The notes under the pieces are model-generated. The model saw nothing but the letters and a program-made list of their open reading frames with translations, did no database searches and was not told where the DNA came from. From contig CAWIKF010000002.1 of NCBI GenBank assembly GCA_963836755.1, positions 1,280,001 to 1,344,000 on the forward strand: a stretch of 64,000 nucleotides of DNA. The letters are read 5' to 3'. This DNA is from an uncultured Verrucomicrobiae bacterium (GTDB lineage: Bacteria; Verrucomicrobiota; Verrucomicrobiia; Chthoniobacterales; Chthoniobacteraceae). Below are positions 476-64,000 of this stretch, in pieces. The number at the start of each line of letters is the position of its first letter. Position 1 is the stretch's first letter. The translations under genes and the position numbers were made by a program.

Positions 476-586
476 ATGAAGATGAAGCCATCCTCCGAGT
501 CCCGATTAATCCTGACCGCCGCCTCGTTACTCCTCGCCAGCATCCTTGGCCACGCTCTGCCATTGCAGCTGATCTTTGCTTGTTAG
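476..586 (+). pseudogene. 5' stub of a secreted-protein gene (signal peptide only), cut off by the attC cluster
   Basis: MKMKPSSESRLILTAASLLLASILGHALP runs directly into an attC right half. Confidence 0.4.
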
Positions 587-588
587 GC
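565..588 (+). repeat. attC right half
   Basis: GCAGCTGATCTTTGCTTGTTAGGC matches the conserved 3' end of the other attC sites. Confidence 0.65.
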
Positions 589-605
589 CTCTTCGCCGCA
601 AATAG

Positions 606-1193
606 ATGAACGATCACTACTACTACTCTAACGACGGCAAAGCTGGCGAGGGCACGTTTTCGCTAGACGAGCTCCGTTCACTCATTAGGGACGGAGTAGT
701 CGCACCTGAAGCCTCAGTGCGCATCAGCGGCTCCTTGAAGCCATGGCAGCCTCTTTCAAGTTTTCCAGAACTTCGGGACGACCCTCTAATTGTTGCCGAC
801 GATGATCTTCCGGTAATCACCATTGACGGCACCGAAGCAAAAGAAGCTGTCGCGGAAGTTGCACGCGCAATGAAAGCTAAAGAGAGATTCAAGATCGTCA
901 CTTCAGACAGAGATTTCGACCCGCTCGGTTATGACCCGCATTCAGCCCATATTTGGATTGGAGCAGCGGGCGGCGGAGTGCTCATGACAATCGGCGCTGG
1001 CACGCTTGTTCTCGCCTTCCTCGATCCGGAACCGACGTCCAAGCTCACGGCATTGATAGCCGGTGGTGTCGTGATGACCTTGGCGGGCGGCGGGCTCATC
1101 GTTACCATTTTGGTCACTCGGTCTCGCTACACGTCCGCCATGCGCTTCGATCACAAGACAAAGAAGTATGAGTGGGTATTATCGCCTCACTAA
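606..1193 (+). CDS. Cassette gene: GYF_2 (DUF4339)-like domain plus two TM helices
   Basis: YYY..GTFSLDELRSLIRDG..V..WQPLSSFPEL pattern, hydrophobic C-terminus; lies between attC sites. Confidence 0.65.
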   Translation: MNDHYYYSNDGKAGEGTFSLDELRSLIRDGVVAPEASVRISGSLKPWQPLSSFPELRDDPLIVADDDLPVITIDGTEAKEAVAEVARAMKAKERFKIVTSDRDFDPLGYDPHSAHIWIGAAGGGVLMTIGAGTLVLAFLDPEPTSKLTALIAGGVVMTLAGGGLIVTILVTRSRYTSAMRFDHKTKKYEWVLSPH

Positions 1194-1232
1194 GTTCAAC
1201 TTGGTCTTTAGCTGATCTTGTTCTCGTTAGGC
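1194..1232 (+). repeat. Collapsed attC site
   Basis: GTTCAAC right after the stop codon, ending TAGCTGATCTTGTTCTCGTTAGGC. Confidence 0.65.
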
Positions 1233-1292
1233 CTAAGAATCGACCCTATATTGGTTGCCATTATTAAAGAACAAACTGCGGTTCCTGCCACA

Positions 1293-2522
1293 ATGACCGA
1301 TCTAAATCCATTCGATCCGCCTCTGCGTCGAATTAAAAGTGTGATAACGGAACTTACCGCGAAAAAAGACGCGGTTTTCGGCGAATTACAATGGTTCGAT
1401 GCAAACGACAATGCGGAGCTTACCAACCAGTTGCAGGCCAGCCGCCGTCAAGCAGAAGCTCTTAGGCACAAATACCAAGAACTCGAAACGCTGATTGCCT
1501 TGTGTCAACGTAATCACGCAGGCACTCGAACTAAGATTCGGACCTTGTTCAATCCCAAAAACTGGCTGGCCTCCGATCAGGTTCAGCTTCGTCTCACGCT
1601 AAAGGGCCTCACTAGCGCGCAGCATACGCTCGAAGCTGAGAAAAAGAATCTTTCAGACCAAATTAAAAGTATGGATCGCGATGTTCAGACAGCCGACACT
1701 ACACTCAAACGGTATTCTGCATTTGATTCGGAACGGCGCAGGGAAGAAATGCGGTCCATTGACAACGAACTTGGGTCACAACTTGCGAAGGCCAAAATTA
1801 TCGAGAAACGCAAGACTGAGGTGGATCACGCCCTAAAGCCTGTTGTTGACCAAATGCAACAATATACCGAGCACAAGCAAAGAGCTGAGAGCATTAGATC
1901 GCGCGCCACAACTCTTGAACATAAACTTTCCAATGCCGGCAACTCATATCAACGTGCTATGGTGCACAAGCAGTGCGCGGCGGAATTCAATGTTCCCAGT
2001 CCAGGCAAGGTTATCGCGCAGAGCGAGCAAGAAATCCACCGCATCGATCGTGACATTGAGAAGGTGTTGAAACGAGCCCAGGAGATTGCGCAGAGAGCCT
2101 CACGCACAATTCATACGATAGTGGTAGATGGGAATAATTTATGCTACGAAAACAGCAGATTCATAGGTCTAGCAGCACTGGACGCACTCATCCCCCTTTT
2201 GCAACTCAACTATTCGGTCATCACGGTATTCGATGCTGCCATCCGGAGGATGTTAAGGGCAGACGACAAGACAATTGTCAGTCGTTTTGGAAATCAGGTT
2301 AAGATGCATATTGTGTTGACCGGCGGCAGGGCAGACGAAACTATATTGGATATCGCGGGAACCGACAAGCACACCTATATTCTTAGTAATGACAGGTTTG
2401 GTGAATATAACGATAAGTCCGCGATCAGAGACCAGCGAATCGTTCGACATGAGATCGTCAATGGGCGCATATTAATCTATGCCTTAGGTATCGACGCTGA
2501 GTATAAACACACGCGGCCCTGA
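1293..2522 (+). CDS. Cassette gene: long coiled coil plus C-terminal NYN/PIN (Zc3h12a-like) ribonuclease
   Basis: Acidic motifs VVDGNNL, VFDA, ADETIL, LSNDRF; helical N-terminal ~270 aa. Confidence 0.75.
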   Translation: MTDLNPFDPPLRRIKSVITELTAKKDAVFGELQWFDANDNAELTNQLQASRRQAEALRHKYQELETLIALCQRNHAGTRTKIRTLFNPKNWLASDQVQLRLTLKGLTSAQHTLEAEKKNLSDQIKSMDRDVQTADTTLKRYSAFDSERRREEMRSIDNELGSQLAKAKIIEKRKTEVDHALKPVVDQMQQYTEHKQRAESIRSRATTLEHKLSNAGNSYQRAMVHKQCAAEFNVPSPGKVIAQSEQEIHRIDRDIEKVLKRAQEIAQRASRTIHTIVVDGNNLCYENSRFIGLAALDALIPLLQLNYSVITVFDAAIRRMLRADDKTIVSRFGNQVKMHIVLTGGRADETILDIAGTDKHTYILSNDRFGEYNDKSAIRDQRIVRHEIVNGRILIYALGIDAEYKHTRP

Positions 2523-2575
2523 CCATGCGATGCAGCGAACGACTCCGCCTGTAGCTGATCTCGTTCTCGTTAGGC
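2517..2575 (+). repeat. attC site (59 bp)
   Basis: CCCTGACCATGCGATGCAGCGAAC...GCCTGTAGCTGATCTCGTTCTCGTTAGGC, overlapping the stop codon. Confidence 0.85.
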
Positions 2576-2601
2576 GTAGCGTGCTCGTTGCAAACCGAAC
2601 T

Positions 2602-3021
2602 ATGAAAGTTGATCCTGATGACCTGAAACGGTGGGGGCATGACGATCTCACCAAGATTATTGACCAGCACGTTTCGACGATGCCCGACCGTCCAAAGGTT
2701 GTCGTCACAATCATTGTCAACGGACGCGATTTTGACGAGGCCAACGCCCAAGCACTGAAGCCTTTGGCTCCCCACTACTTTAATACGCAGCCGGTACTTT
2801 GGCTTGGAGCCGCATTCCGTATTATCTACCTTGGGTTTGACGCCGCCGAGTCCGATGCGTTTCTCCAGTTTTGGGCGATTGCAGCAACGATGCCCCGCCT
2901 TGATGAGATGGCGCTCTACATCGACGGCAAAGCAGAGTTTAGGATTGATCGCCTAATTCACGGGCCTCCTCCTCCCGGTTCGGATTTATACGAGGAGCCA
3001 GTCCGACCTTATGAGCCATGA
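2602..3021 (+). CDS. Cassette gene, hypothetical protein
   Basis: ORF fills the space between two attC sites. Confidence 0.6.
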   Translation: MKVDPDDLKRWGHDDLTKIIDQHVSTMPDRPKVVVTIIVNGRDFDEANAQALKPLAPHYFNTQPVLWLGAAFRIIYLGFDAAESDAFLQFWAIAATMPRLDEMALYIDGKAEFRIDRLIHGPPPPGSDLYEEPVRPYEP

Positions 3022-3058
3022 ACGTAAGTTCCGTGACTTTTCTGCTATCAGCCAACGC

Positions 3059-3152
3059 TCCTAACGATGCGCTGCAGCGAACTGCTCCGCCGCCTTCGCC
3101 CGCGCAGCCAGCGCGCCAGCCTCCGCAGTCGCTGAGCTTGGGGTCGTTAGGC
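3059..3152 (+). repeat. attC site (94 bp)
   Basis: TCCTAACGATGCGCTGCAGCGAAC...GTCGCTGAGCTTGGGGTCGTTAGGC. Confidence 0.85.
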
Positions 3153-3187
3153 CCCTCCGCATCACTTCGATTTCCTCATTGCCACCC

Positions 3188-3679
3188 ATGAAGCAAGAGA
3201 ACCGGTTCGTAGCGCACTTATTCCACTTTCTGGCTCCATTCGTGGACATGGAGCAGGATCTTTTCATCTGCGTGGACGGAGCCGCTGCTGCGCGCCACTC
3301 GGGAGCCGAGGGCGCTCGCCTCCTCGACTCCGACTTACCCGACTTGTGGCTCACGTTTTGTGGTCACACGACACCAACGGGAATTGAAGCGAAGGTCATC
3401 GAAAAGAATTCGATCAGTATTCGCCAAGCCCAGTTGAAGGCATGGTGCAGCGCCGGAACCGGTGCGTATCAGCCGACATTCTGGGTGGCCACGAACCGAG
3501 GATTGACCGAGTTCTTCTGTTGGCACCACGCTGCTTTACGGTCGCGTTTGGATTCATCCGCGAGCACCGTCCCTAACGTCTCTCTTTCCCTGTCTGCTTT
3601 TCCGCCCGCACACCGCTCCTCGAACATTGCAGAGCTTGCACTCTACATACTTACCCAACACCGAACAGCCGGGGCCTAA
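3188..3679 (+). CDS. Cassette gene: putative PD-(D/E)XK nuclease
   Basis: LPDLWLTF...GIEAK...Q..W motif; stop codon lies inside GCCTAAC. Confidence 0.6.
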   Translation: MKQENRFVAHLFHFLAPFVDMEQDLFICVDGAAAARHSGAEGARLLDSDLPDLWLTFCGHTTPTGIEAKVIEKNSISIRQAQLKAWCSAGTGAYQPTFWVATNRGLTEFFCWHHAALRSRLDSSASTVPNVSLSLSAFPPAHRSSNIAELALYILTQHRTAGA

Positions 3680-3692
3680 CCATGCGCTGCAC
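3674..3692 (+). repeat. attC left half, truncated
   Basis: GCCTAACCATGCGCTGCAC followed by unrelated sequence. Confidence 0.7.
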
Positions 3693-3854
3693 CTGAAAAG
3701 GAGCCCCGGACGCCACGGACGCCAATTTTAGAGTCCCTCTGGGATTATAGCCGTTAGAGTCACATTCCTTTTCCCTCCAACTTTAGAATAACTTCAATAT
3801 CCCCGTCCGCAGCGTCCGTAGAGCGTGTGGCTTGTTGTTCATAAGCTGACCCCT

Positions 3855-25648: not shown

Positions 25649-28379
25649 TTAATGACTCGCAGTCGCTGCCGTCAAGCTCACCGGCCCGAGCAAACCGCAA
25701 TCGGTGAGCGGCCAGTTCGCGGCATCGAAAGGCTTGTATTTGATGTTCACGATGTTGATGTCGTAAAAAGTTTTCCACGGCACGCCGCGACGATCCACAT
25801 CGCGGATGCGATTCGCGGCGACGCTTGTGACTTCCACTTCGAGCTTGTTGCCGGTGGGCTTCAGATTTCCCACAGCCACGCGGAATGGCGGCGTGAAGAG
25901 CGTGCCGTAATCTTTGCCATTCACGCGCACGCGCGCGCTCTGCCGCACATCGCCGAGGTCGAGAAAGTAATGCGCACCCGCCGCAGCAGGCGCGTCAAAC
26001 GTTGTTTCATATTTCGCAGTCCCGGCAAAAGCCTGCGTGCTCGGGTCCGGAAAAGTTGTCCACGATGCGAGCTTTGTCCGCTTCAAAATCCGCAGGCAGC
26101 TTCGGCCCGCCATCGATGAATTTCACCATCCACGGCCCGTTGATCGCCACCGGCTCGCCATTCGCCTGCCAATAATTCCATGCAGGCCCGTCCACCTTTT
26201 CCGCGGTCAGCGCGCGGAGGATCACCGAGCCGCCTGCGACCAATTGCAGATGAATTTTTCCATTCGCATTCATCGCGGCCACGCCGGATTTGCCGGTCAT
26301 CGGATCGAGCACGACGCTCGACTTTGCCGGGCGCGCGAGCGTGATCCAGCTGTCGAAATCCTTCCCGCCTTGATTTGCGATGAAGTAATTCCAGCCGCCG
26401 TCAAAGCTGCGCCGGACAAAGGAAAGTCCGCTTTGCGTCAAAGTCTCCAGCTTCACACCCACTTGCCTCACTTGCGTTCCGCCTCCAAACAAGACCTCGC
26501 CGCTCCCGAACCTCTTTGCACGGCCACCTGTCATCGACTCCACCGCGCCCGTCGAAACAGACTCAGCCAACTTTTTAAATTCCGCGCGCCGCTTCTCCAG
26601 ATCCTTCTCGCCCGGCACATCGGACGGCAAATCTTTTACAAAAATCACCGTCGCGCCTTTCTCCGCCAGCGCGAGCAATTGCCGAAAAGTTTCCAGCGGA
26701 ATGTATTGGCACGGCGGCACGACGACCGTCTTATATTTCCCGCCGGGCACCGCGATTTTTCCATGCTCGACCTTCGCCGTCATCAACTGCGCGTCCGACA
26801 CGTAGTCAAAGGCGTAGCCGAGCTTCCACAGTTCCGCCGCCGTGTCGCCGATCGGCTGGCTCGTGAACCAATCGCGCGCGCCGATGCTGTAATGCGGCAG
26901 CATCGTTTTCCCCGGCTTCATCCAGTAATCCGCGATCGGCCAGTAGAGCAGCACGTCGTTATCCGGCTGACCCGATTGCAGGATCGCCTGGCAGCGCGCG
27001 ATGTATTCGTCGAGCGCGGGCGCGTCGTGCCAGATGGAATTGCGCGGGTTCATCTCCGCGGAGGCGTAGAAATGCCAGCCGGGCCAGCCCGCCTCATCCG
27101 GCGAGTAGCAGCAGCCGTGGTAAAAAATGTGATTGATGCCCGAGAGAAACATGTCGTCCGCGAGATATTTCAGCTCCGCGAGCGTCTCCGTGAAATGTTC
27201 CGCGAGCCACGTGCCGGTCTCCGCGGAGGTGAGGGGATGGCCAGCCACGTGCGACGCGGAGGAGGCAAACTTTGAGACCAGCTTGTTGTGATCGTCGTGA
27301 AACATTTCCGTCTCGGGAATGTCCGCATCCGCGTAAAGGTCGAGCAGATTGCCGGGCGAGCCGTGCGCTTGGTTGCGCGTCAGAAATCCGTGCGCGTGCG
27401 CCCAATCAATCCACTCCGGCTGCGATTCCCGCGCCATCACTTCCGAAACCGTCTGCCGGTAATCGCATTTCACGCGCGCGGAAAGCTCGTCCTCGCCGCT
27501 GCCGAAAAGCGCCGGCAGTTCATCCTGCAATTTGTAGCCGCGCAGCTTTTCAAATTGCGCAAATAAATCCGGCGCCCAGTTCGAGCTGTATTCGTAGGAA
27601 TCCTGATAGACCGCGCGCGGCTTTGGCCCATCGTAATTTTTGAAAGCCGCGTCAAACCATTGCAGCCAATCGCTTACGGCTTTCGGGTAAAGCGGATTCA
27701 GCATCCAACCTTCGCCGCCGGGCGCCGGCCGTTTCACACGCTGGCCGGAAGGCCCTTGAGAAATTGCATAGACCGTCCACGCTTTCGACGCGCCCGCTGG
27801 CTCGGCTCCATTTCCCGGCGGTGAAAATGAAACGTCGCCGTCCGCGCTGATGGAATCTGTCAGCTCGGTTGCCTTTCCATCCGGCCCATAAGCCACCAGC
27901 GCCTGGATTGATGCGCGGTCGAACTTTTCCTTCCACCGTTCACCCGCGCTCAAGCTGAAAGTTTTCACGACCACTTTTGCATTCGCGTCCGCGTCGGTCA
28001 CAGTCGGCCCGCCGAAACACCAGCCGGTGCCGAGCGTCATGTCCACGCCCATGCCGAGCCGATGCGCCTCGCTCACGGCCCAGCCCATCATTTCCATCCA
28101 TTGCGGCGAAAGATAGGGGATGAACTTTGATTCGAACCCCTTCGCGCCGTAGATCGGGATGATGTGAATGCCGCCGAGCCCGCCCGCGTGATAGCGCTCC
28201 AGCTCACGCGTCAGGTTCGCCTTGTCCACTGCGCTCCCCATCCACCAGTTAAACGCCCACGGCCGCGTCTGTGCCGTGATCGGCGGCCATGAAAGCGCCT
28301 CCGCTGCGCGAGCCAAAGTGCCCGCGCCGGCAAAAGCAGCGAGCGCTGCGCCGAAGATCGCGAGTTTTCTGGAGTTCAT
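25649..28379 (-). CDS. GH106 alpha-L-rhamnosidase-like protein, frameshift near 26072
   Basis: RPW..WW.GSA, LGTGWCFGGP, DSYE, QAHG.P, PETE; C-terminal LDLG.V...GLLGPV in second frame. Confidence 0.85.
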
Positions 28380-28401
28380 TGGTTACGGATATTGGGGTCG
28401 A

Positions 28402-28758
28402 TCATTCTAGTCCGCGGCTGGAAATTTGAATAGGATTTCCCTCTGGGTCTCTGGCGTTGGCAAAGGCAAAGCCGTCAACCTCATGAACCTTGCCGAACTT
28501 CAGGCCGTTGGTTGCGAACCTTCGCTTGGCGCGATGGACGTCGACGACTGCGAAAACAATCTTCGCGGGCGAACGACCACGCTCGCGGGAAGTTGTTGTT
28601 GCGCGATGCAAGGCAAGGTTGCAACCACCGGCGGATAACTCCAGCCAACCCTCTTCAAAGCTATCCAGCGGGGCGAGGCCGAAATGACGTTGATAGAAGG
28701 CGGCAACACCAGGAACGTCTCTCACGAAAAGGATAATGCGACTAATGGGAATAGTCAT
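28402..28758 (-). CDS. VOC/glyoxalase protein (probable cassette)
   Basis: LFV.D...AAFY..FG, LALH, RDPEGN.I. Confidence 0.85.
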   Translation of the reverse strand: MTIPISRIILFVRDVPGVAAFYQRHFGLAPLDSFEEGWLELSAGGCNLALHRATTTSRERGRSPAKIVFAVVDVHRAKRRFATNGLKFGKVHEVDGFAFANARDPEGNPIQISSRGLE

Positions 28759-28829
28759 CGAATGCTTTGGCTCATGGTTCGTCGCCGCACGTTGTCGACC
28801 AAGCTATAAGGCGCTCGCGCTGCCGGTCT

Positions 28830-29123
28830 TCACGTGTAGGGAATCCAAAATCTACGTGACTCGACAAGCTCAACCTCACCGCTAAACAGAATCGGAGCTG
28901 GCAGCTTTGCGTAAAAGACGAGACCTCGGTAGGGAGTCAGATATTGGTGAACCGTGCGGAATATGCCCGTGGTCGTATGGACTACCAGCGGTCTCTCGCC
29001 GCGCGAAACAATCTCCATGAACGAACGAGGGTCCACAAGCACGATGGTTCCATACGCCTTCAGTGCGTTGATCACGGTTGCTTGTGCTGCTGCCGCGCCG
29101 GGTGTTGTTGCTCCGTAGCTCAT
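28830..29123 (-). CDS. Cassette gene, hypothetical
   Basis: ORF starts just after an attC end. Confidence 0.6.
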   Translation of the reverse strand: MSYGATTPGAAAAQATVINALKAYGTIVLVDPRSFMEIVSRGERPLVVHTTTGIFRTVHQYLTPYRGLVFYAKLPAPILFSGEVELVESRRFWIPYT

Positions 29124-29143
29124 AGAGTTGCAATGATTTCAGA

Positions 29144-29205
29144 GTCGAACGCCGAAAAGCTAGGCATTCGGGCCATTCGCCGTTGGCTCCAGCGCCTTGT
29201 CAGGC
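29144..29205 (-). repeat. Degenerate attC site (62 bp)
   Basis: GCCTGACAAGGCGCTGGAGCCAAC...AGCTTTTCGGCGTTCGAC on minus strand. Confidence 0.6.
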
Positions 29206-29567
29206 CGTTCGCGCAACAATCGACGCAAGGCGGGAATGGAGACAGCCGCAAAAACGAGAGCTATGACAAGCTCGTAGATAGGATTGTCCCATTGAGTGAG
29301 CTCAGACGAGCCATGAGTTTTCACCGGCATGCCGGGAAATGACGCCGTCTTGTCGCCGGTGTCCGTGCTGACCAGCAACGCGACGATCTGCCCTGGACCG
29401 GCGGGAAATTGAATGGTGTAAACGCCACCCGCCATCGACGTAGAGATGCCGCCACCGGACTTCGCGAATGGAAGGAAAAGCAGCACCAGCGGAACGATGA
29501 AACTGATGAACCAATAGCCGACAGTGAGCCAGAGAAATGCAAGAGCGACTCGGGCGGCGCGGTTCAT
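29160..29567 (-). CDS. Cassette gene, two-TM membrane protein
   Basis: Two hydrophobic segments; reads into the attC. Confidence 0.55.
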   Translation of the reverse strand: MNRAARVALAFLWLTVGYWFISFIVPLVLLFLPFAKSGGGISTSMAGGVYTIQFPAGPGQIVALLVSTDTGDKTASFPGMPVKTHGSSELTQWDNPIYELVIALVFAAVSIPALRRLLRERPDKALEPTANGPNA

Positions 29568-29594
29568 TGACTCAGCGGTCTCATCCGTTCGTGC

Positions 29595-29617
29595 TTAGCT
29601 GCATCGCATGGTCAGAC
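29595..29617 (-). repeat. attC left half
   Basis: GTCTGACCATGCGATGCAGCTAA, 7 nt after the stop codon. Confidence 0.65.
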
Positions 29618-29624
29618 CTTGCGG

Positions 29625-29993
29625 TTATTTCTGAAGAGATTGGTTGAAGGAGAGTCGGTTGCCGAATGGGTCGGTGACTTCCATGATCTTTGCGCTCCAC
29701 GCTGTGTCCTCAATGCATGGGTTCATGTTGGGATTCGGGCGGGTGGAAAGCTCGCGGTGAAAGGCCTCAATGTCATCGAGATGAATAAAGGCCTTCGCGC
29801 CCGGACAGGCATCGCCGTAATGTTCCGTGAGATGCAAGATCGCAGAGTCGCGGGAGACTTGGACATATCGCGGCGTGGTAGGTGTGAACCGGTGTTCCCA
29901 ATCGATGCGGAAGCCCAGCCAGTCGACATAAAAAGACCTTGCAAGATCGTAGTCAAAGATGCGGAAGATCGGGATGGGTGCTTCGAGCTTCAT
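29625..29993 (-). CDS. Glyoxalase/bleomycin-resistance family protein (cassette)
   Basis: PIFRIFD, FYVDWLGF.IDWEHRF, LHLTEH.GD, DPFGNRL.F. Confidence 0.85.
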   Translation of the reverse strand: MKLEAPIPIFRIFDYDLARSFYVDWLGFRIDWEHRFTPTTPRYVQVSRDSAILHLTEHYGDACPGAKAFIHLDDIEAFHRELSTRPNPNMNPCIEDTAWSAKIMEVTDPFGNRLSFNQSLQK

Positions 29994-30024
29994 TGGATGG
30001 CATCTCCGATGTGCGAGAGCATAG

Positions 30025-30083
30025 GTCTAAGGGAACAAGATCAGCTACAGGCGGAGGCAGTTAGCTCCATCGCGTGGTCAGGC
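30025..30083 (-). repeat. attC site (59 bp), core mutated to CTTAGAC
   Basis: GCCTGACCACGCGATGGAGCTAAC...GCCTGTAGCTGATCTTGTTCCCTTAGAC. Confidence 0.8.
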
Positions 30084-30482
30084 ATTTCGCAGGGGATTGA
30101 TGCGGGTAAGGAACTGAGCCCTGTGGGTGAGGCAATAGACCAAGATAATGATGCCCACGACAGTGCCGACGGGGAAGCCACAAAGTAAGATCCCGCCATA
30201 GATGACGAGAAACCAAAAGAACCACTCTGCGCGGTAGCAACAACTGAACAATGCGATGCAAAGTAATACGAGGCCCATAAGGCCGAGCGCGAGACCAGCC
30301 GCAGTAGCACAAAGCACCACACCTATGTTCGCGCCAAGGTGCTGTGGCTCTGCGATGCCGCCGCTTCCAAGCGTCCTGAATGCCCCCATCATGCCGATCA
30401 AAGTTCCGAGAAGTCCAACCACAGGCCCAAGCTGGAGAAGTGCGCCTGTCACGGCGAGGGTCTTTCCGCTGGAGGATTCCAT
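30078..30482 (-). CDS. Cassette gene with MotA/TolQ/ExbB-like TM segment
   Basis: P..GLLGT..GM..AF..L, I...L.ATA.GL. Confidence 0.7.
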   Translation of the reverse strand: MESSSGKTLAVTGALLQLGPVVGLLGTLIGMMGAFRTLGSGGIAEPQHLGANIGVVLCATAAGLALGLMGLVLLCIALFSCCYRAEWFFWFLVIYGGILLCGFPVGTVVGIIILVYCLTHRAQFLTRINPLRNA

Positions 30483-30510
30483 ATCGTTCGATTTAGTTGC
30501 GGTTGGAAAC

Positions 30511-30662
30511 GCCTAACATCCTATTGGATCGACGTTCGGGTATCGCGTCAAAGTATGCGTCGGCGTAAGCGGGAGAATGGCGGGCGGGTTTGCCCTGTCA
30601 ATGAGAAAGGGCGCTGCGTGAAAGGGTATCGAGACTGTAGGAAGGCCTCCGGCCTCTCCAGA
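30511..30662 (-). promoter_or_regulatory. Cassette leader copy 1: TTGACA-N16-CATTCT promoter and GTTAGGC junction
   Basis: -35 at 30601-30596, -10 at 30579-30574; homologous to 35632-35850. Confidence 0.65.
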
Positions 30663-30716
30663 CAACGATAGACGAACGGAAATAGCACCCGGCACCGGGT
30701 CATCTACGCCTCCAGC

Positions 30717-30749
30717 AAAAACGCCGTCCCCTTGCGAGGACGGCGTTTG
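30717..30749 (-). terminator. Intrinsic terminator of glnII
   Basis: AAACGCCGTCC...GGACGGCGTTTTT on minus strand. Confidence 0.75.
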
Positions 30750-30772
30750 GTGGAGTGTTGCTGTGCGCTGGC

Positions 30773-31795
30773 TTACGGCTTCGGCACGGTCGCGATGGTC
30801 TGCAAAATGCGGCTCGCGATTTTGTAGGGGTCGCCTTGTGAGTTCGGCCGCCGGTCTTCGAGGTAACCTTTGTAGCCGGCGTTCACGAAGCTGTGCGGGA
30901 CGCGGACGGAGGCGCCGCGGTTGGCGATGCCGTAGTTGAATTTATCGATCGACTGCGTCTCGTGCAGGCCGGTGAGGCGCATGTGGTTATCGGGGCCGTA
31001 GACGGCGATGTGTTCGTTTTTGTATTTGTCGAACGCGGCCATCAGCGCCTCGAAGTAAGGTTTGCCGCCGGTTTCGCGCATGTATTCGGTGGAAAAGTTC
31101 GTGTGCATGCCGGAGCCGTTCCAATCGACTTCCATGCCGAGCGGTTTGCAATGCCAGTTCACGTCCACGGAGTATTTTTCGCACAGGCGCATGAGGAGGT
31201 AGCGGCCCATCCACATCTGGTCGGCAGCGGTTTTGGAGCCTTTGCCGAAGATCTGGAATTCCCACTGGCCTTTGGCGACTTCCGCGTTGATGCCTTCGTG
31301 GTTGATGCCGGCGGCGAGACAGAGGTCGAGGTGCGTGTCCACGATCTCGCGGGCGATGTCGCCGACGGATTCGTAGCCGACGCCGGTGTAGTATTTGCCC
31401 TGCGGCGCAGGGAAGCCGCCGCCACTCGGGAAGCCGAGCGGGACGCCGTCTTGATAGAGGAAATATTCCTGCTCAAAGCCGAACCATGCGCCGGGGTCGT
31501 CGAGGATGGTGGCACGGGCGTTGGTCGGGTGCGGCGAGCCGTCGGGCAGCATGACCTCGCACATGACGAGTGCGGCATCGGTTTTGGTGGCGTCGGGATA
31601 GACGGCGACCGGCTTGAGCATGCAATCGGAGCTGTGGCCTTCGGCCTGCCGGGTGGAGCTGCCGTCGAAGCCCCACATCGGGAGATCTTCGAGGTCGGGG
31701 AATTTTTTAAATTCCTTGACTTGGGTTTTGCCGCGGAGGTTGGCGACGGGCTCGTAGCCGTCGAGCCAGATGTATTCGAGTTTGTATTTTGCCAT
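30773..31795 (-). CDS. glnII: Glutamine synthetase type II
   Basis: 340 aa; [53 protein letters not shown]. Confidence 0.9.
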
Positions 31796-32005
31796 GATGG
31801 TTTTGAATTAAGCGTGTTTGGATTAAAAGGGCTCGACGCGTCAGCGGCCGAGCCTGCGACACGCTTAGCAGCCGCTATGCTAGCGACAAGAAAAAAGCGC
31901 CTTTACTCTACAAATTCGCGCCGCAAGCGCCGTTCGCGGTGCTGCCGGTGGATGAAGTCAGACAGCACGGTGGATTTTGTGCGCAAAAAGATGCAGCGCC
32001 GCATT

Positions 32006-34360
32006 TCAGAGCGACGGGAGCCGTTTCAAGCGCCATCCGGGCTTCGCGAGCGTGCCGTCGGCGACGTATTCGAGAAGTTTGCTCACGGGGAAGAGGAGCA
32101 CGCCTGGCAATCCCTGCGCGTTGAGCCGGATGTTGAAATCGATTTTATCCTCGAGGAAAAAGATCCGCCCGCCGCCGAGCATGCTGAAGCCGCTCCCCTG
32201 CACGAGAAAGTTCTGCGTCGAAATCACGCCGTCGCCCACCTCGAAGTTCGCGCCGGCGCGCCGCGCGGTGTTGTAGCCCATGCCGGGGACGATGGAATTG
32301 AGGATGCCGGAAAGCGGGCCGAGCACCGGGATGGCGAAGACGTTGCCATTGACCACGGCGACCTGGCCGCGGCCTTGCAGCGTGCGCGCATCGTCGCCGC
32401 GCCCGCGGAAGTCGAATGCGCCGCTGAGCAGGCCGCGCGAGTTTTGGTAGTTGAAATAAAGTTTCGTCAGGCTCTCGAAGTCAACATTTTCGGCGCTGAT
32501 CTTCGCCGCGTATCCGGGCGAATCGCGCTTCAGCGAAATATCGGCGTTGCCCCGCAGTCGGCCCGCGTAAAGGGTTCCTGCGAGATCGGAGATTTGCAGC
32601 CGCCCCTCGGTGAAGAGCAGATTTCCGCTCAAGCGCGGGAACGGCAGCACTTTTTTCAAAAACGTGTAATCCATCCCGCCTGGCGCGTTGACGGCGACGT
32701 TGAGCTTCGTCCGGTCGGCGCCGACGTGGCCATTGAGGACGACATCGGGCGCGCCGCGGAATCGATACGGCGCGAGGTTGCGCGGCAGGCCGAGCCCGAT
32801 CCAAGTGGCGACGTCGCCGACGTTGAGATGCGTGCGAATCTGGTCGAGCGACGCCTCGTGCTGCGCAAAATCGTAGCGAAACGTCCCGGTGCCGGTGCCC
32901 TCGTCGCGCACGACTTTGAAATCCTCGAAGCTCACGACTTTATTTTTGACGCGCATCGTCGCGCTTGCGGAATTCAGCGGCACGCCGCGCAGGCGCGTGC
33001 GGCCGAGCTTCACCGCGCCGAGCGCTTCGCATTTGTCGATGTCCGGCGTCGGTCCGCTCGCCGCGAGATCGAAGTGCGGCGATTGCACGAAATCCCAGTC
33101 GCCGAGCAGCGTCGCGGCCGGGCCGGATAAAAGCGGGAGCAGCGTGCGCGGATCGAGCGTGCTCTGCAGACGCGCGCGGAAACTGCCGGGGACTTGCAAG
33201 GCATTCAGCGCGACCGCGCCGGTGCGATTGCGCAGCGAGAAATCCCGCACATACCAGCGCGCGCCGTCGTAGGAAAAACTCGCGGACGCTCCATCGAAGA
33301 CGACCGATTTGACGGCGAACTTTTTCAGCGACGCGCGGCCTGTGAGCTGGACCTTCATCGGATCGCCGGGCAGCGCCTGCGCGGAAATTTCCAGCGCGGG
33401 CGGATCGTAAAAAACCGCCTCGTCGAGCACGTGCGGCACGCGCAGCGAATGCGCGAGCCCTTGCAAATCGAGCGTCGAGCGCAACTGGCCGTCGGCGCGC
33501 TTCGTTGCGAAATCATACGACGCGCTCGCCTCCAGCTTTCCGCGCGCATCCGTCACCGTGCAGCGCGTGAGGCTGCAGACTGCCTCGCGATAACGCAGCG
33601 TCGCCAAAATGTTTTCGATCTGATAACCGCCGCGCCGGATGTTCTGCCCGGCGATCGTCGCCTCGGCGAAAAGCGTTGCCGGCTCCGCGAGATCGCCGCT
33701 GAACTCGATCTCGATCCGCGGCGGCGTCCCGAGAAAGCTGACGGTGCGCAATTCACTGAGGATGTCCGACAGCGTTTGTTGCCGCTGCGCCGATTGTGCG
33801 TTTGGACCGCCGTCCGACCCGATTTTCCACGCCTGCGGATTCAGCAGCCGCCCACGCGCAGAAACTTGGATGCCATAGACGCGCGCCTCCGCCTCGCTCA
33901 AGTAAAGCTGCTCCGGCGGCAGCAAAAGCCGCGCGTTCAACCGCGAAATTTCCACGCGTTCGCTGTCGGGATCGCCCGGGTCGAGCGGAAGCGCGAGATT
34001 GGCATCCTGCAAATCGACTGCGTTCAAAAACGGCCCGCCGCGGATGAGATTCGAGTAGTTCAGGTCAAGCACTACGCGATTGATGACAGCGACCGCGCGT
34101 CCCGGCCGCCGCGGATCAATGATCCGCACCTCGCGCGCGACCAGTCCGTGCAGCGGATCGAGCGTCAACCGCTGCATCGAGACGTCGACGCCGCGCTTGC
34201 GAAATTCCTGCGTGACCAGCGTGCGCCATTTCCGGCTGAAGCCGTGACTCGATGCGTAAAAGCCGAGCCAGAGCACCGTCGCGAACACGAGCGCGTAGAT
34301 GCATTGGATGAGTCGATGCAGCAGACGTCGCATGAGTGCGGCGAGAGTAACCGCACGCAT
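32006..34360 (-). CDS. AsmA-like (YhdP/TamB-type) envelope protein
   Basis: N-terminal TM anchor, beta-rich repeats, AsmA_2-like C-terminus ending GTL..P.W. Confidence 0.7.
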
Positions 34361-34566
34361 CGCGCGCGGGAAGTTTTTCCGTCAGCGTGGTTCGTCCAAG
34401 CGGTCAGCCGCCGCTGGCAGGCATGCCTACTTTCAATCCCCGGCAAAGGCGGCGGCGCCTGATAAGACTCCGCATAAAAGCGGATGCCACAACTCGGACA
34501 ATGCGGGTAAGGCTGGAGCACGAGTGGCCCGCGACAGGCGCATTACACAGTTAGCATCGGTTGAAG

Positions 34567-35046
34567 TCAAAGTGTAGCTATAATCCTAGCCCGCTGTTGC
34601 TGGTATTCTTGTTCTGTGATCGATGAAGAACGCTTCATCTCGTCGAGACGTTTGAGTCGCTCCTCAGCCGTTGTGCCAGTCGGCTGCTTCTCCGCGCGCA
34701 ATCCCTCGGCGATGGCTCCTGCAACCGTGCCAACTCCAGACCGTGTCTCGGCTGCGACGTAGTTAAAGCTATCCGCCGCCACAGGTGCAGTCTCGGCAGC
34801 GGAATACCGCGCCGCTGCTCCCATGTAGCCAACCATGCAACATACTGCACCGAAAAATAGGAATGGCATTCCGACAAAGATGCACCAGAAAAGGTGCGGT
34901 GATTGAAAGCTATTCGCCGCCGAAAAGAAGTCGCCCAAACCGATTACAATAAATAGCGCGCCTATCGCTAAAAGAAAAGGCCCAGCTACTCGTAATAGCG
35001 AGCGGAGTCGTCCATGGTAAGGAGCTGCGATGGAGTTTGATTTCAT
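34567..35046 (-). CDS. Cassette gene: two TM helices plus SHOCT domain
   Basis: ERLKRLDEMK....ITEQEYQQQRARII. Confidence 0.75.
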   Translation of the reverse strand: MKSNSIAAPYHGRLRSLLRVAGPFLLAIGALFIVIGLGDFFSAANSFQSPHLFWCIFVGMPFLFFGAVCCMVGYMGAAARYSAAETAPVAADSFNYVAAETRSGVGTVAGAIAEGLRAEKQPTGTTAEERLKRLDEMKRSSSITEQEYQQQRARIIATL

Positions 35047-35061
35047 AGGGTGAGATGGATT

Positions 35062-35098
35062 GGATAACGAGAACAAGATGAGCTATAGGCGGCCAGGC
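35062..35098 (-). repeat. Collapsed attC site
   Basis: GCCTGGCCGCCTATAGCTCATCTTGTTCTCGTTATCC. Confidence 0.6.
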
Positions 35099-35691
35099 AT
35101 TTGACTGGTTTGCGACTGGCGTTCTTCGCTGGGAACTCCTAGGATGCCCAGGCCCTTTAATCGCGCGAAGATACCTTCGGAAGCAGCAGGTAAAAGGTGT
35201 GCAGGTAGTTTCGCCAACTGCAGTGCAAGCTCTGGTCCCGATGCAGCGCCGGAAGCCTCCAAAGCCTTCATCGCATACAACAATGCTCCCATGCTGTGGT
35301 CGCCCATGTGCGCGGTGGCGACAGCCTGCCCGGCAGCGCGGGCCGCTGCGATCGCGGCCTTGTCGGTGGCTTCCCGCGCTGCTGCGTGAGCAGCCAATGA
35401 CGCCTTCATCGCCACGCCTGTCTTGACTTCGCCGTTCGCCCAGGCGCGGCATACTTCCAAGGCGTTCCTTGGCCGAATGTCGTCGCACTGACGGGTGAAA
35501 AGGTGCAACACGCGCTCGGCACAATCTGCTGCCCATCGCGCAAGAAAGCGGTGACTCTCGCGATCAAGCAAGCCGCCTCGATGAACGGCTACAAATCGTC
35601 GGTCTCGCGAGGGAGTGACGATGCGCGATTGGGCTGACACACCGATCCGGCCGGCTGGCATTGACCTACGCCTCGTAGTCCGTGTCGGCAT
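35083..35691 (-). CDS. Imm5-like putative immunity protein (start uncertain)
   Basis: WAADCAERVL, D.RPR.A, AHAAAR, AARAAGQAVATAH..H. Confidence 0.75.
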   Translation of the reverse strand: MPTRTTRRRSMPAGRIGVSAQSRIVTPSRDRRFVAVHRGGLLDRESHRFLARWAADCAERVLHLFTRQCDDIRPRNALEVCRAWANGEVKTGVAMKASLAAHAAAREATDKAAIAAARAAGQAVATAHMGDHSMGALLYAMKALEASGAASGPELALQLAKLPAHLLPAASEGIFARLKGLGILGVPSEERQSQTSQMPGRL

Positions 35692-35850
35692 AAGCGGTAG
35701 AATGGTTGGCGCATTTGCCCGGTCAAGAAGAAAGGGTTGCTGTGGAAACCGAACGGCGCCGGCTTCCATGCGCATCACGGCAACTTTCGGCTCCTAGTCG
35801 CGCGCGGAAGGAGCCTGAGACTGTAGCAAGGCATTTTGGCACTCCAGATG
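35632..35850 (-). promoter_or_regulatory. Cassette leader copy 2: TTGACC-N16-CATTCT promoter and GTCAGCC junction
   Basis: -35 at 35726-35721, -10 at 35704-35699; homologous to 30511-30662. Confidence 0.6.
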
Positions 35851-36133
35851 AGCGTTTTCAGCTGCAGAACGGCGTCTGGCCTCTCCAGATGAGAATTTGA
35901 AGCTTTAAAAAGGCGTCTGGCCTCTCCAGATGAGAATTTGAAGCTTCAAAATGGCGTCTGGCCGCTCCAGATGAGAATTTGTGGCTTCAAAAAGCCGTCT
36001 GGCCGCTCCAGATGAGAATTTGTGGCTTCAAAATGCCGTCTGGCCGCGCCAGATGAGAATTTGAAGCTTCAAAAAGCCGTCTGGCCGCGCCAGATGCTGT
36101 TTTGAAGTCCCGGATTGGCATCTGGACGCTCCG
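35830..36133. repeat. 41-bp tandem repeat, about 7 copies
   Basis: GGCGTCTGGCCTCTCCAGATGAGAATTTGAAGCTTCAAAAA; unit starts 35830, 35871, 35912, 35953, 35994, 36035, 36076, partial 36117. Confidence 0.9.
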
Positions 36134-36324
36134 CGGACAATCGGGAAGGCTCAGACGAATGGCCACAGGGCCATCATCCAGAGCCTGCGCGCCGATAGTG
36201 TCTCCTTTAAATGCCAGAATCTGTCCCGACCCGAAGGCGGTTCGAGATGCTGATTCTTCCCCACTTTCCGGCAGAATATATTTCCTCCATCCGCTTCGGC
36301 AGCTAGATATGTGGCCGTGCGTCT

Positions 36325-37119
36325 ATGACTGAGTATCTCGATCTCCTCCGCCTGGTGCTGGAAAAGGGGCGGCCAAAAGGCGACCGCACCGGCACCGGAA
36401 CGCATTCGGTTTTTGGCGCGCAGGCGCGGTTCGATCTGCGGGAAAAGTTCCCGCTTTTGACCACGAAGAAGCTGCATCTCAAATCGATCATCCATGAGCT
36501 GCTCTGGTTTTTGCGCGGTGAAACAAATGTAAAATATCTGCGCGAGCGGGGCGTGACGATTTGGGACGAATGGGCGGACGCGAACGGCGACCTCGGCCCG
36601 GTGTATGGCGCGCAATGGCGCGGTTGGCGTGCCGCGGATGGGCGGGTGATCGATCAGATCGCGTGGGTGATCGGCGAGATTCGCAGGAATCCGGAGAGCC
36701 GCCGCTTGATCGTGAGCGCGTGGAATGTCGGCGAGCTCTCGCGGATGGCGCTGCCGCCGTGTCATCTGCTGTTCCAGTTTTTCGTGCAGGATGGCGAGCT
36801 CAGCTGCCAGCTTTACCAGCGGAGCGCGGATTTGTTTCTCGGCGTGCCGTTCAATCTCGCGAGCTACGCGCTGCTGACGATGATGGTGGCGCAGGTGTGC
36901 GGGCTGCGCGCTGGGGATTTCGTGCAGACGTTTGGCGATTTGCACTTGTATGACAATCATCGCGAACAGGCGCGGGAACAGCTTTCGCGAGCGCCGCGCC
37001 CGCTGCCGGTGATGCGGCTGAACCCGGCGGTGCGGGAGATCGATGATTTCAAATTCGAAGACTTCGAGCTGTGCGGCTACGATCCGCATCCGGCGATCAA
37101 GGCGCCGATCGCGGTTTGA
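36325..37119 (+). CDS. thyA: Thymidylate synthase
   Basis: [37 protein letters not shown]. Confidence 0.97.
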
Positions 37120-60884: not shown

Positions 60885-60995
60885 GATTAGGCTCAATCGC
60901 GCAGATTTTACTCCGATGAAAAACAACCTCCGCCCGATTAGACTCAATAAATGCGCATTATATTACGCATTTTTGGGGCCTAATTCTCGTTAGGC
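60885..60995 (+). promoter_or_regulatory. attI-like head of cassette array
   Basis: GATTAGRCTCAAT direct repeats (60885, 60936), AAATGCG..CGCATTT inverted repeat, GCCTAATTCTCGTTAGGC core. Confidence 0.45.
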
Positions 60996-63699: not shown

Positions 63700-64000
63700 A
63701 TGTCGATTTCAACGCTTTTCATTCTGATCTTCGTGGTTGTCGGCCTGGGCATCGCGGCGTTTGGAGCACGCAGCCTGATTCACGCTCGCGCGAGTTCGAC
63801 ATGGCCTCACGTTCCCGGCGAGATTAAGCATTCGGAGATCAACCAAAGCTCTGACAGCGACGGCACTTCATATTCGCCACTGGTTCGCTACTCGTATTCT
63901 GTCAGCGGCCAGTCTTTCACCGGTGAACGGATCTGCTTCGGCCTCGCCAAGATGTCTGCCGGATACCAATTTGCGCAGGCCTACATCGAGCGTTATCGCG
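63700..64000 (+). CDS. Cassette gene, DUF3592-like membrane protein (runs off window)
   Basis: MSISTLFILIF...ASSTWP.V.G.I..S...Y.P.VRYSYSV.G..F. Confidence 0.75.
   Translation, partial: MSISTLFILIFVVVGLGIAAFGARSLIHARASSTWPHVPGEIKHSEINQSSDSDGTSYSPLVRYSYSVSGQSFTGERICFGLAKMSAGYQFAQAYIERYR

Follow-up and report, generated by a model that had tools for sequence, protein, structure and literature searches.

Repeated integrase-free leaders in a Chthoniobacteraceae genome read best as promoter and attI heads of an integron class

Two clusters of cassette-type genes in an uncultured Chthoniobacteraceae bacterium each open with a similar promoter-bearing leader, raising the question of whether such a leader is the cassette promoter (Pc) plus attI site of an integron and, if so, whether it still captures cassettes. 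The two leaders, here called copies A and B, lie in a window of 64,000 nucleotides (nt), positions 1280001 to 1344000 of contig C2 of the source genome (G000; contigs C1 and C2; 3.18 Mb, GC content 58%, completeness 96%). Copies C, D and E of the same leader type lie elsewhere in that genome; other G numbers denote genomes of relatives, and L numbers denote loci. The best explanation we can offer for the leader is that it is the intI–attI intergenic head of one integron class in this bacterial family, with a predicted sigma-70-type cassette promoter, a short and probably leaderless open reading frame (ORF) that runs across attI to a stop in the first cassette (G/TTAG), and a simple site made of an L box, 5 nt and an R box.

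Both leaders are on the minus strand, and an earlier note on this sequence was right about their -35 box, 16-nt spacer and -10 box as well as the distance from the -10 to the cassette junction, which is 57 nt in A and 61 nt in B (Table 1). The upstream block that the note had added to the leader (GAGACTGTAG.AAGGC) is likewise present at both, with exactly two occurrences genome-wide (window 30631 and 35817), but it belongs to a 41-nt tandem array at 35842-36096 and not to the promoter module; this array stands directly upstream of B, and a lone end-unit of it upstream of A. Compared without gaps, A and B are equal at 53 of 68 positions, and when both strands of the 3.18-Mb genome were scored against the 68-nt A core, only two other sites (52 and 45) exceeded the background maximum of 38. 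A profile search recovered A, B, C (C2:887528-887655), D (C2:1774501-1774625) and a partial copy, E (C2:1052747-1052818), from which the promoter is absent; the next match had an E-value of 1.1. There are thus four full copies and one partial copy, each followed by a different cassette-type gene.

Across the aligned core, A to D are 58-74% alike. Invariant columns make up 5 of 6 in the -35 box, 5 of 6 in the -10 box, 7 of 8 in a block comprising the start and GCCGAC, and 4 of 16 in the spacer, and a promoter pattern drawn from the four copies matches the genome exactly four times. These conserved boxes suggest that the promoter-like sites may drive cassette expression. The L box, 5-nt spacer and R box (GTTRRRY) are intact in A, C and D and degenerate in B and E. 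The junction in B is nevertheless backed by three homologues of its gene that start (M/V)RDRRF: at two of those loci a GTTAGGG box lies ∼23-30 nt before this start, and the GTCAGCC of B lies 28 nt before the matching codon. Another register for B, with GTCAGCC as hairpin arm plus L box, was dropped, as it requires a 19-nt insertion and fits the homologues less well. The hairpin GCCGAC/GTCGGC is present in C, D and E. The spacing of the GCCGAC/TAGRC repeats presumably resembles that of DR1 and DR2 of attI1, and these repeats may act as extra integrase sites. Rfam models gave no match at E≤1 across 28000-36500, and a TGTTC-N4-GAACA box was found at neither intI nor any head.

What identifies the leader is the same head beside intI in relatives. 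We found the core YAATAGGATGTTMGRY in 5 of 150 further genomes of the family (reversed control, 0) and a looser core in 22 of 398 genomes of the order (control, 1). From the looser core we obtained 27 non-self loci, 13 of which were accepted as clear heads of the leader type; the other 14 (12 outside the family, plus L114 and L061) were set aside as chance or unclear. Three of the accepted heads (G011, G024 and G156) directly adjoin a full divergent intI, with the common layout TTGAC, 16 or 17 nt, -10 box and ATG, followed by YAATMRGAT and G/TTAGGC. In G024, for example, the order is TTGACT, 17 nt, CAGCCT, ATG, TAGGCCGAG, TCGGC, YAAT, five bases and G/TTAGGC, matching the layout of the window leaders, and a profile of the four leaders scores the intI-adjacent sites weakly (E-values of 0.035 and 0.11). 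Since the same head adjoins intI in these relatives, the leader is by homology an integron Pc plus attI and, judged by sequence, would work like one. It passes the sequence tests for an attI but is not a complete integron, there being no IntI-profile match within 1.5 kb upstream of any of A to E.

The relatives also document states in which intI is partial or gone. A 5′ stump of intI, 44-50 codons long, lies beside a head of this type at L091, one of four metagenome matches, and at G025 L110. Heads of the other clade have similar stumps in G001 and G015, the latter genome also having four full copies of intI with a separate head for each. That is, full intI, 5′ stump and no trace all occur across the family. 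G025, a 67% complete assembly in which no full intI was found, has seven leader-type heads with a different cassette behind each, and G156 has a cognate intI plus an orphan head of the same leader type. No orthologous orphan heads with different cassettes were found in two species; the best pair (G138 L115 and G156 L118) has unrelated flanks. A separate hairpin-plus-core pattern gave four matches in genome contigs, all judged to be chance. A search of viral contigs gave no match.

The sole intI of the source genome (C2:765050-766066) is full length at 338 amino acids (aa), scores 475 bits against TIGR02249, above the cut-off, and has its catalytic motifs. It carries an attI of its own and lies ∼545 kb from the window leaders. 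Besides the leader type of A to E, we distinguish heads of type 1 (that of this resident intI), type 2 and type 3. Five further orphan heads, of type 1 (C2:1426383), type 2 (C1:703701, C2:1267117 and C2:1471654) and type 3 (window 60989), bring the full orphan heads to nine, of four types, in one genome. The earlier notion of a dispersed, integrase-free equivalent of Pc plus attI therefore stands as to dispersal and the lack of an adjacent integrase; the genome does, however, have a full intI, and the leader is better described as a real attI and Pc that would have lost its intI. In a tree of 11 IntI sequences (midpoint rooted, with few rows), a 100/99 branch splits two IntIs with the attI type of A to D from the resident IntI and six others with heads like types 1 to 3. 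IntIs of the A-to-D attI type are 55-61% identical to the resident one; that of G156 is 88% identical to that of G024 and 61% to the resident IntI, and the L091 stump is closest to IntIs of this type. From this grouping and the attI type, the leader would be part of a class of integron for which the source genome yielded no integrase.

Some observations on the other heads and integrases may be recorded here. The type-2 core pattern occurs in 1 of 103 family genomes. In G098, in which no full intI was found, two near-identical type-2-like orphan heads (L092 and L094) have several hundred upstream bases in common and different first cassettes. Short TCAGTAG-type repeats lie just upstream of the type-1 orphan head (C2 about 1426150-1426250). 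The array of the type-3 head continues past position 64000, and ∼450 nt upstream of this head a stretch of 50 codons matches the C-terminus of an FN3-like gene (C2:1470103-1471140) at 92% identity. At L054 and L056 (G002 and G036), IntI-like genes below the TIGR02249 cut-off adjoin phage-like genes.

Most heads also have a short ORF of 17-33 codons, whose ATG lies 7-8 nt past the -10-like box and in frame with the TAG of G/TTAG; starting so close to the -10, this leader ORF is probably leaderless. Searching 34-110 nt upstream for an open ATG frame, we found one in the TAG frame at 23 of 33 heads, versus 10 and 3 in the other frames, or 12.9 versus 5.0 and 2.0 after collapsing to 20 genome/type groups; in this count B scores through an ATG that precedes its presumed start, and short anchors were used to place a few of the heads beside intI. 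Among control sites, an open ATG in the TAG frame occurs at ∼19% of random positions and at 0 of 49 attC R′ boxes. In the resident integron, the start codon of intI and the ATG of the leader ORF overlap on opposite strands in a CATG palindrome, and CATG or a similar sequence stands at the same place in several relatives; the loci concerned are L010, L032, L033, L035 and L051.

Copy B shows a variation on this arrangement. Its gene reads SRDRRF from a TCG where the homologues start (M/V)RDRRF, and a frame shift puts the leader ATG in frame with this Imm5-like gene. Given both the frame and the TCG at the position of its own start codon, the gene would be made only as a 202-aa fusion (Table 1), an example of how a captured gene that lacks a start codon can persist by being fused to the leader ORF.

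The earlier note had named one conserved ordinary gene behind most copies as the finding that would speak against a cassette head. No such gene is there: 24 first-cassette regions, 11 from the source genome and 13 from other records, are mutually unmatched (tblastx, E<1e-3). A 110-aa ORF without NCBIfam match follows copy C, and a 93-nt remnant and then a carbonic anhydrase gene follow copy D. GC content at third codon positions is 0.51-0.67 in the window cassette ORFs versus 0.74-0.82 in the flanking genes, and the 3′ flank of glnA in two genomes of the same genus has neither leader nor cassettes. In addition, the two ends of the first cassettes (the bases after G/TT and the far end) are complementary, with 61 matches against 48.3 after permutation over nine heads (p=0.00035); by head, this is strong in A (8/9) and weak in C (5/9) and D (3/9). 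By the pattern used to call attC sites and halves, A and D have several each behind them, and B and C one half each. Decay is visible within the window, where the first attC of A lacks its G/TT, the second is a left half, and B has a right half only. Elsewhere in the window, at about 550-3700 on the plus strand, a cassette array opens with an attC right half, and no head was recognised there. A resident-integron cassette (C2:766638-767200) is 80% identical to a counterpart in the type-3 array (C2:1344770-1345340).

We consider it likely that copies A to D are stranded heads of a lost integron class and still express their first cassettes. Each copy would be what remains of a complete integron after erosion of intI beginning at the 3′ end of that gene, or would be a later duplicate of a head already stripped. 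Cassettes would have been loaded by attC × attI recombination, and the head retained for transcribing the first cassettes and feeding ribosomes to them. Both the series of stumps in relatives and the position of the 41-nt array favour loss of intI. Since the cognate integrase class was not found in the source genome and the arrays are decaying, the copies are probably frozen expression heads. Behind the leader type of A to D, 2 of 15 att elements are intact versus 25 of 46 behind types 1 to 3 (Fisher p=0.007), a comparison tempered by the crude pattern used for scoring and by the arrays not being independent. The leader thus reads best as a relic that would still drive expression, rather than as a proven active landing pad: the present-day capture proposed earlier is doubtful, the resident IntI being of another clade and attI type and the arrays behind this head being more decayed.

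Several observations weigh against this explanation. Neither the 1.5 kb upstream of each orphan head nor the rest of the source genome contains a remnant of intI, so that deletion at these loci lacks a direct trace, and at 96% completeness the cognate intI could be absent from the assembly only. BLAST of the full leader A against 60 relatives returned a single 20-nt match, and the homology therefore rests on core and layout. The resident integron, although its attI is of another type, has the 41-nt array in common with B, and simple deletion from a duplicate does not account for this. Within the leader type of A to D, the leader ORF is intact in D only; A has ACG in place of ATG, and in B and C the frame is off by one base. 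Finally, a stock promoter scan called none of the promoter-like sites, and CATTCT agrees with TATAAT at 3 of 6 positions.

An alternative that we regard as possible, if doubtful, is that the head is a discrete module of 130-175 nt, copied or moved whole through side reactions of the integrase or tandem-repeat duplication and not left behind by repeated loss of intI. Orphan heads of G138 and G156 indeed share exactly 130 nt at 86% with unrelated flanks, and in four orphans of three genomes the likeness to the cognate head ends at ∼175 nt, which is where the start codon of intI lies in G024. Other arrays enclose or immediately precede D, E and one type-2 head, and both D and E are joined to a cut attC; 4 of the 9 full orphan heads are within 700 nt of a tandem array of period 21, 41 or 42 nt (background, 1.7%); and G025 combines its seven leader-type heads with four in-array junctions ending in the same core. 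However, no shared ends or target duplication were seen among the source-genome copies, whose aligned cores are so divergent, sharp boundaries are also expected where only the functional part is conserved, and the 5′ stumps together with the four full intI copies of G015 offer a simpler route.

In a broader version, to which we give little weight, genomes of this family would have a distributed integron: mobile or readily duplicated heads of several classes, loaded in trans by whichever IntI is present and spreading over the chromosome, often to the ends of the 21-, 41- or 42-nt tandem arrays and into existing arrays. If true, such an integron would offer first positions in large number, and every one would come with a promoter and an ORF that loads ribosomes.

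The tandem arrays deserve a description of their own. The source genome has about fifty with a period of 21, 41 or 42 nt, of many unrelated sequences and mostly 100-350 nt long, and the orphan heads of G157 and G138 abut such arrays as well. In G025, junctions within arrays (L062, L067, L077 and L078) consist of a near-symmetric attC-like hairpin plus ∼40 nt ending in the attI core, and at L073-L074 a unit of FN3-like gene end, leader, attI and cassette repeats in tandem with differing cassettes; in this incomplete assembly (67%), these structures may bear on the multiplication of heads or the origin of attC. Two genes for 346-348-aa proteins, at L016:493-1536 and C2:1470103-1471140 (both minus strand), each have a sigma-54-like motif and a 41-nt array upstream, followed by intI or a type-2 head. 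One of the proteins was checked and had no Pfam match; their Atlas neighbours are hypothetical proteins of Verrucomicrobiota, with fn3 in 18% of the members of one cluster.

Stranded heads of a lost class would be compatible, as regards origin, with a further proposal that concerns present activity, namely, that the resident IntI acts in trans on as many as nine or ten docking sites scattered over the genome, the heads thus being live landing pads. That enzyme is full length with its catalytic motifs, A, C and D have retained both the L box and the R box, and attC remnants behind heads of the A-to-D type are of the same sequence family as those of the resident integron. The cognate-type orphan copy at C2:1426383 has 3 of 5 att elements intact, and G156 pairs a cognate intI with an orphan head of the A-to-D type. 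Against this stand the mismatch in IntI clade and attI type, the decayed arrays, the degenerate L box of B, and the finding that 20 array regions share a single cassette-length match, at 80% identity and with none involving the leader type of A to D. We therefore hold live service in trans to be rather unlikely. Among the sequencing runs listed, one contained this strain, probably being the source sample, and none with RNA did. Its reads gave, among the matches listed, no alternative cassette at either crossover, a result uninformative on activity at a depth of 2-5. Of the loose read ends, those at 29619 and 30082 correspond to attC sites found elsewhere in the genome, whereas the assembly has no counterpart of the one at 30033; none of those listed falls at a crossover.

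It is very improbable that the leader is a non-coding cassette carrying a promoter, or an attC in inverted orientation. Read from the opposite strand, the core does resemble an attC left half, C, D and E do have the GCCGAC/GTCGGC hairpin, and similar cores end the in-array junctions of G025; by inspection, however, no partner R′ or R″ box closes an attC, no GTTRRRY start lies upstream of the promoter in A to D, and the intI-adjacent homologues sit at the attI position. Least credible of all is an ordinary duplicated promoter ending in an attG-like hotspot where cassettes landed off target, for although such insertion near resident promoters has been shown experimentally (10.1101/2022.09.11.507474) and the glnA flanks of the two same-genus genomes are bare, the idea is largely refuted by the same core and layout adjoining intI in three genomes, an attG being unrelated to attI, and also faces a conserved L-5-R site and leader ORF frame and a junction at the same place in all four full copies.

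Table 1. Positions of leader parts, cassettes and related features in the window
Feature	Position	Strand	Remarks
Copy A attI simple site	30511..30529	-	L box ATCCAAT, 5-nt spacer AGGAT, R box G/TTAGGC (GTTAGGC at 30511-30517); putative crossover at 30517/30516
Copy A leader ORF position	30513..30566	-	ACG (not ATG) 7 nt past the -10; TAG frame; 17 codons
Copy A post-promoter stretch	from 30566	-	ACGCCGAC
Copy A promoter-like site (Pc)	30574..30601	-	-35 TTGACA 30596-30601, 16 nt, -10 CATTCT 30574-30579
Copy A upstream block	30631..30662	-	Lone degenerate end-unit of the 41-nt repeat family, ~110 nt beyond the glnA stop
A cassette 1, MotA/TolQ/ExbB-domain ORF, 134 aa	30078..30482	-	Pfam PF01618
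attC of A cassette 1, 59 nt	30025..30083	-	R′ box mutated (CTTAGAC)
A cassette 2, glyoxalase-superfamily ORF (29625-29993) and attC left half only	29594..29993	-	R″ GTCTGAC fits TTAGAC start
Array A, three more small ORFs (135, 97 and 118 aa; last is a glyoxalase)	28402..29567	-	attC remnant detected after the first only
Copy B degenerate attI	35632..35650	-	R box G/TCAGCC (GTCAGCC at 35632-35638), L box unrecognisable
Copy B post-promoter stretch	from 35691	-	ATGCCGAC
Copy B promoter-like site (Pc)	35699..35726	-	-35 TTGACC 35721-35726, 16 nt, -10 CATTCT 35699-35704
Copy B upstream block	35817..35848	-	End-unit of the 41-nt array
41-nt tandem array, ~6 copies	35842..36096		Family and cassette-relative orientation as in the array 3′ of intI (C2:764695-765011)
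Predicted fusion ORF, 202 aa	35083..35691	-	From leader ATG 7 nt past the -10, through attI into the Imm5-like cassette gene (PF21805)
B cassette 1 attC, right half only	35062..35085	-	R′ GTTATCC
B cassette 2, 160-aa ORF	34567..35049	-	Weak SHOCT match, below cut-off
Type-3 orphan head	60916..60995	+	25-codon leader ORF ending at G/TTAG; 6 of 9 att elements of its array intact

Among known systems, the leader is most like the integron platform of Pc plus attI, as in class 1 (attI1) and class 2, with which it shares an array-facing putative promoter, an L-5 nt-R site, a G/TT crossover and cassettes with attC. In class 2 integrons, Pc is reported to lie in the attI region, and Pc2A, like the promoter of the leader, is outside the intI coding region (PMC8876359). 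It differs from the classic platforms in having no adjacent intI and in occurring in four to five copies of its type within a genome of four head types, and by inspection its sequence is unrelated to the class 1 to 3 sites.

Clusters of two or more attC sites without a neighbouring intI are described as CALIN or SALIN, with loss of intI among the listed origins (PMC4889954, Cury et al. 2016; 10.1101/2022.09.11.507474, Loot et al.). Off-target insertion at attG is given as another route to CALINs (10.1101/2022.09.11.507474), 95% of which are reported to have no recognisable intI pseudogene nearby (PMC4889954; 10.1101/2022.09.11.507474). CALINs are defined regardless of attI, whereas the clusters of the source genome keep a putative promoter and attI. 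As these sources describe it, IntegronFinder seeks attI only by exact match to the class 1 to 3 sites (PMC4889954), and attI is not searched for beyond those classes (PMC4889954; PMC8618304). The origin of CALINs and the expression of their promoterless genes are open questions, in part because attI is unsearchable outside a few clinical classes. In the source genome a head can be recognised at nine CALIN-like arrays, and the relatives supply a graded series from full intI through 5′ stump to no trace; a distributed integron, if real, would explain many CALINs as working satellite platforms.

Other reported cases come close. In the Shewanella prophage M16-3, one CALIN opens with its own attI on a replicon that also has a complete integron (PMC9892861, Qi et al. 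2023). That account concerns a single CALIN, whose attI matches that of the integron residing there, whereas here there are nine full orphan heads, those of the A-to-D type mismatching the resident integrase class. In Xanthomonas, intI has been inactivated or deleted, arrays are frozen and decaying, and CALINs occur at several loci; that system has one ancestral platform, at ilvD, and the portion of the report available describes no attI heads at the extra CALINs (10.1101/2025.06.18.660453). For archaeal integrons, putative attI sites were, by the text available, placed only beside intI (10.1101/2022.02.06.479319). Our literature search, covering the main text of mostly open papers, found no survey of multi-copy orphan attI heads. 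Having one intact IntI alongside orphan attI sites of four types, some cognate to it and some not, the source genome offers a natural panel.

The leader ORF, too, has a counterpart. ORF-11 of attI1 is reported to be short, to span attI and to terminate at a TAG formed by positions 3-5 of the GTTRRRY of the first cassette, and to aid translation of that cassette (PMC8876359). The leader ORF has the same geometry, being likewise short with its stop in G/TTAG, but is probably leaderless, whereas a Shine-Dalgarno site precedes ORF-11. The recurrence of this geometry across heads suggests that translational coupling of the ORF-11 type is widespread rather than a quirk of class 1.

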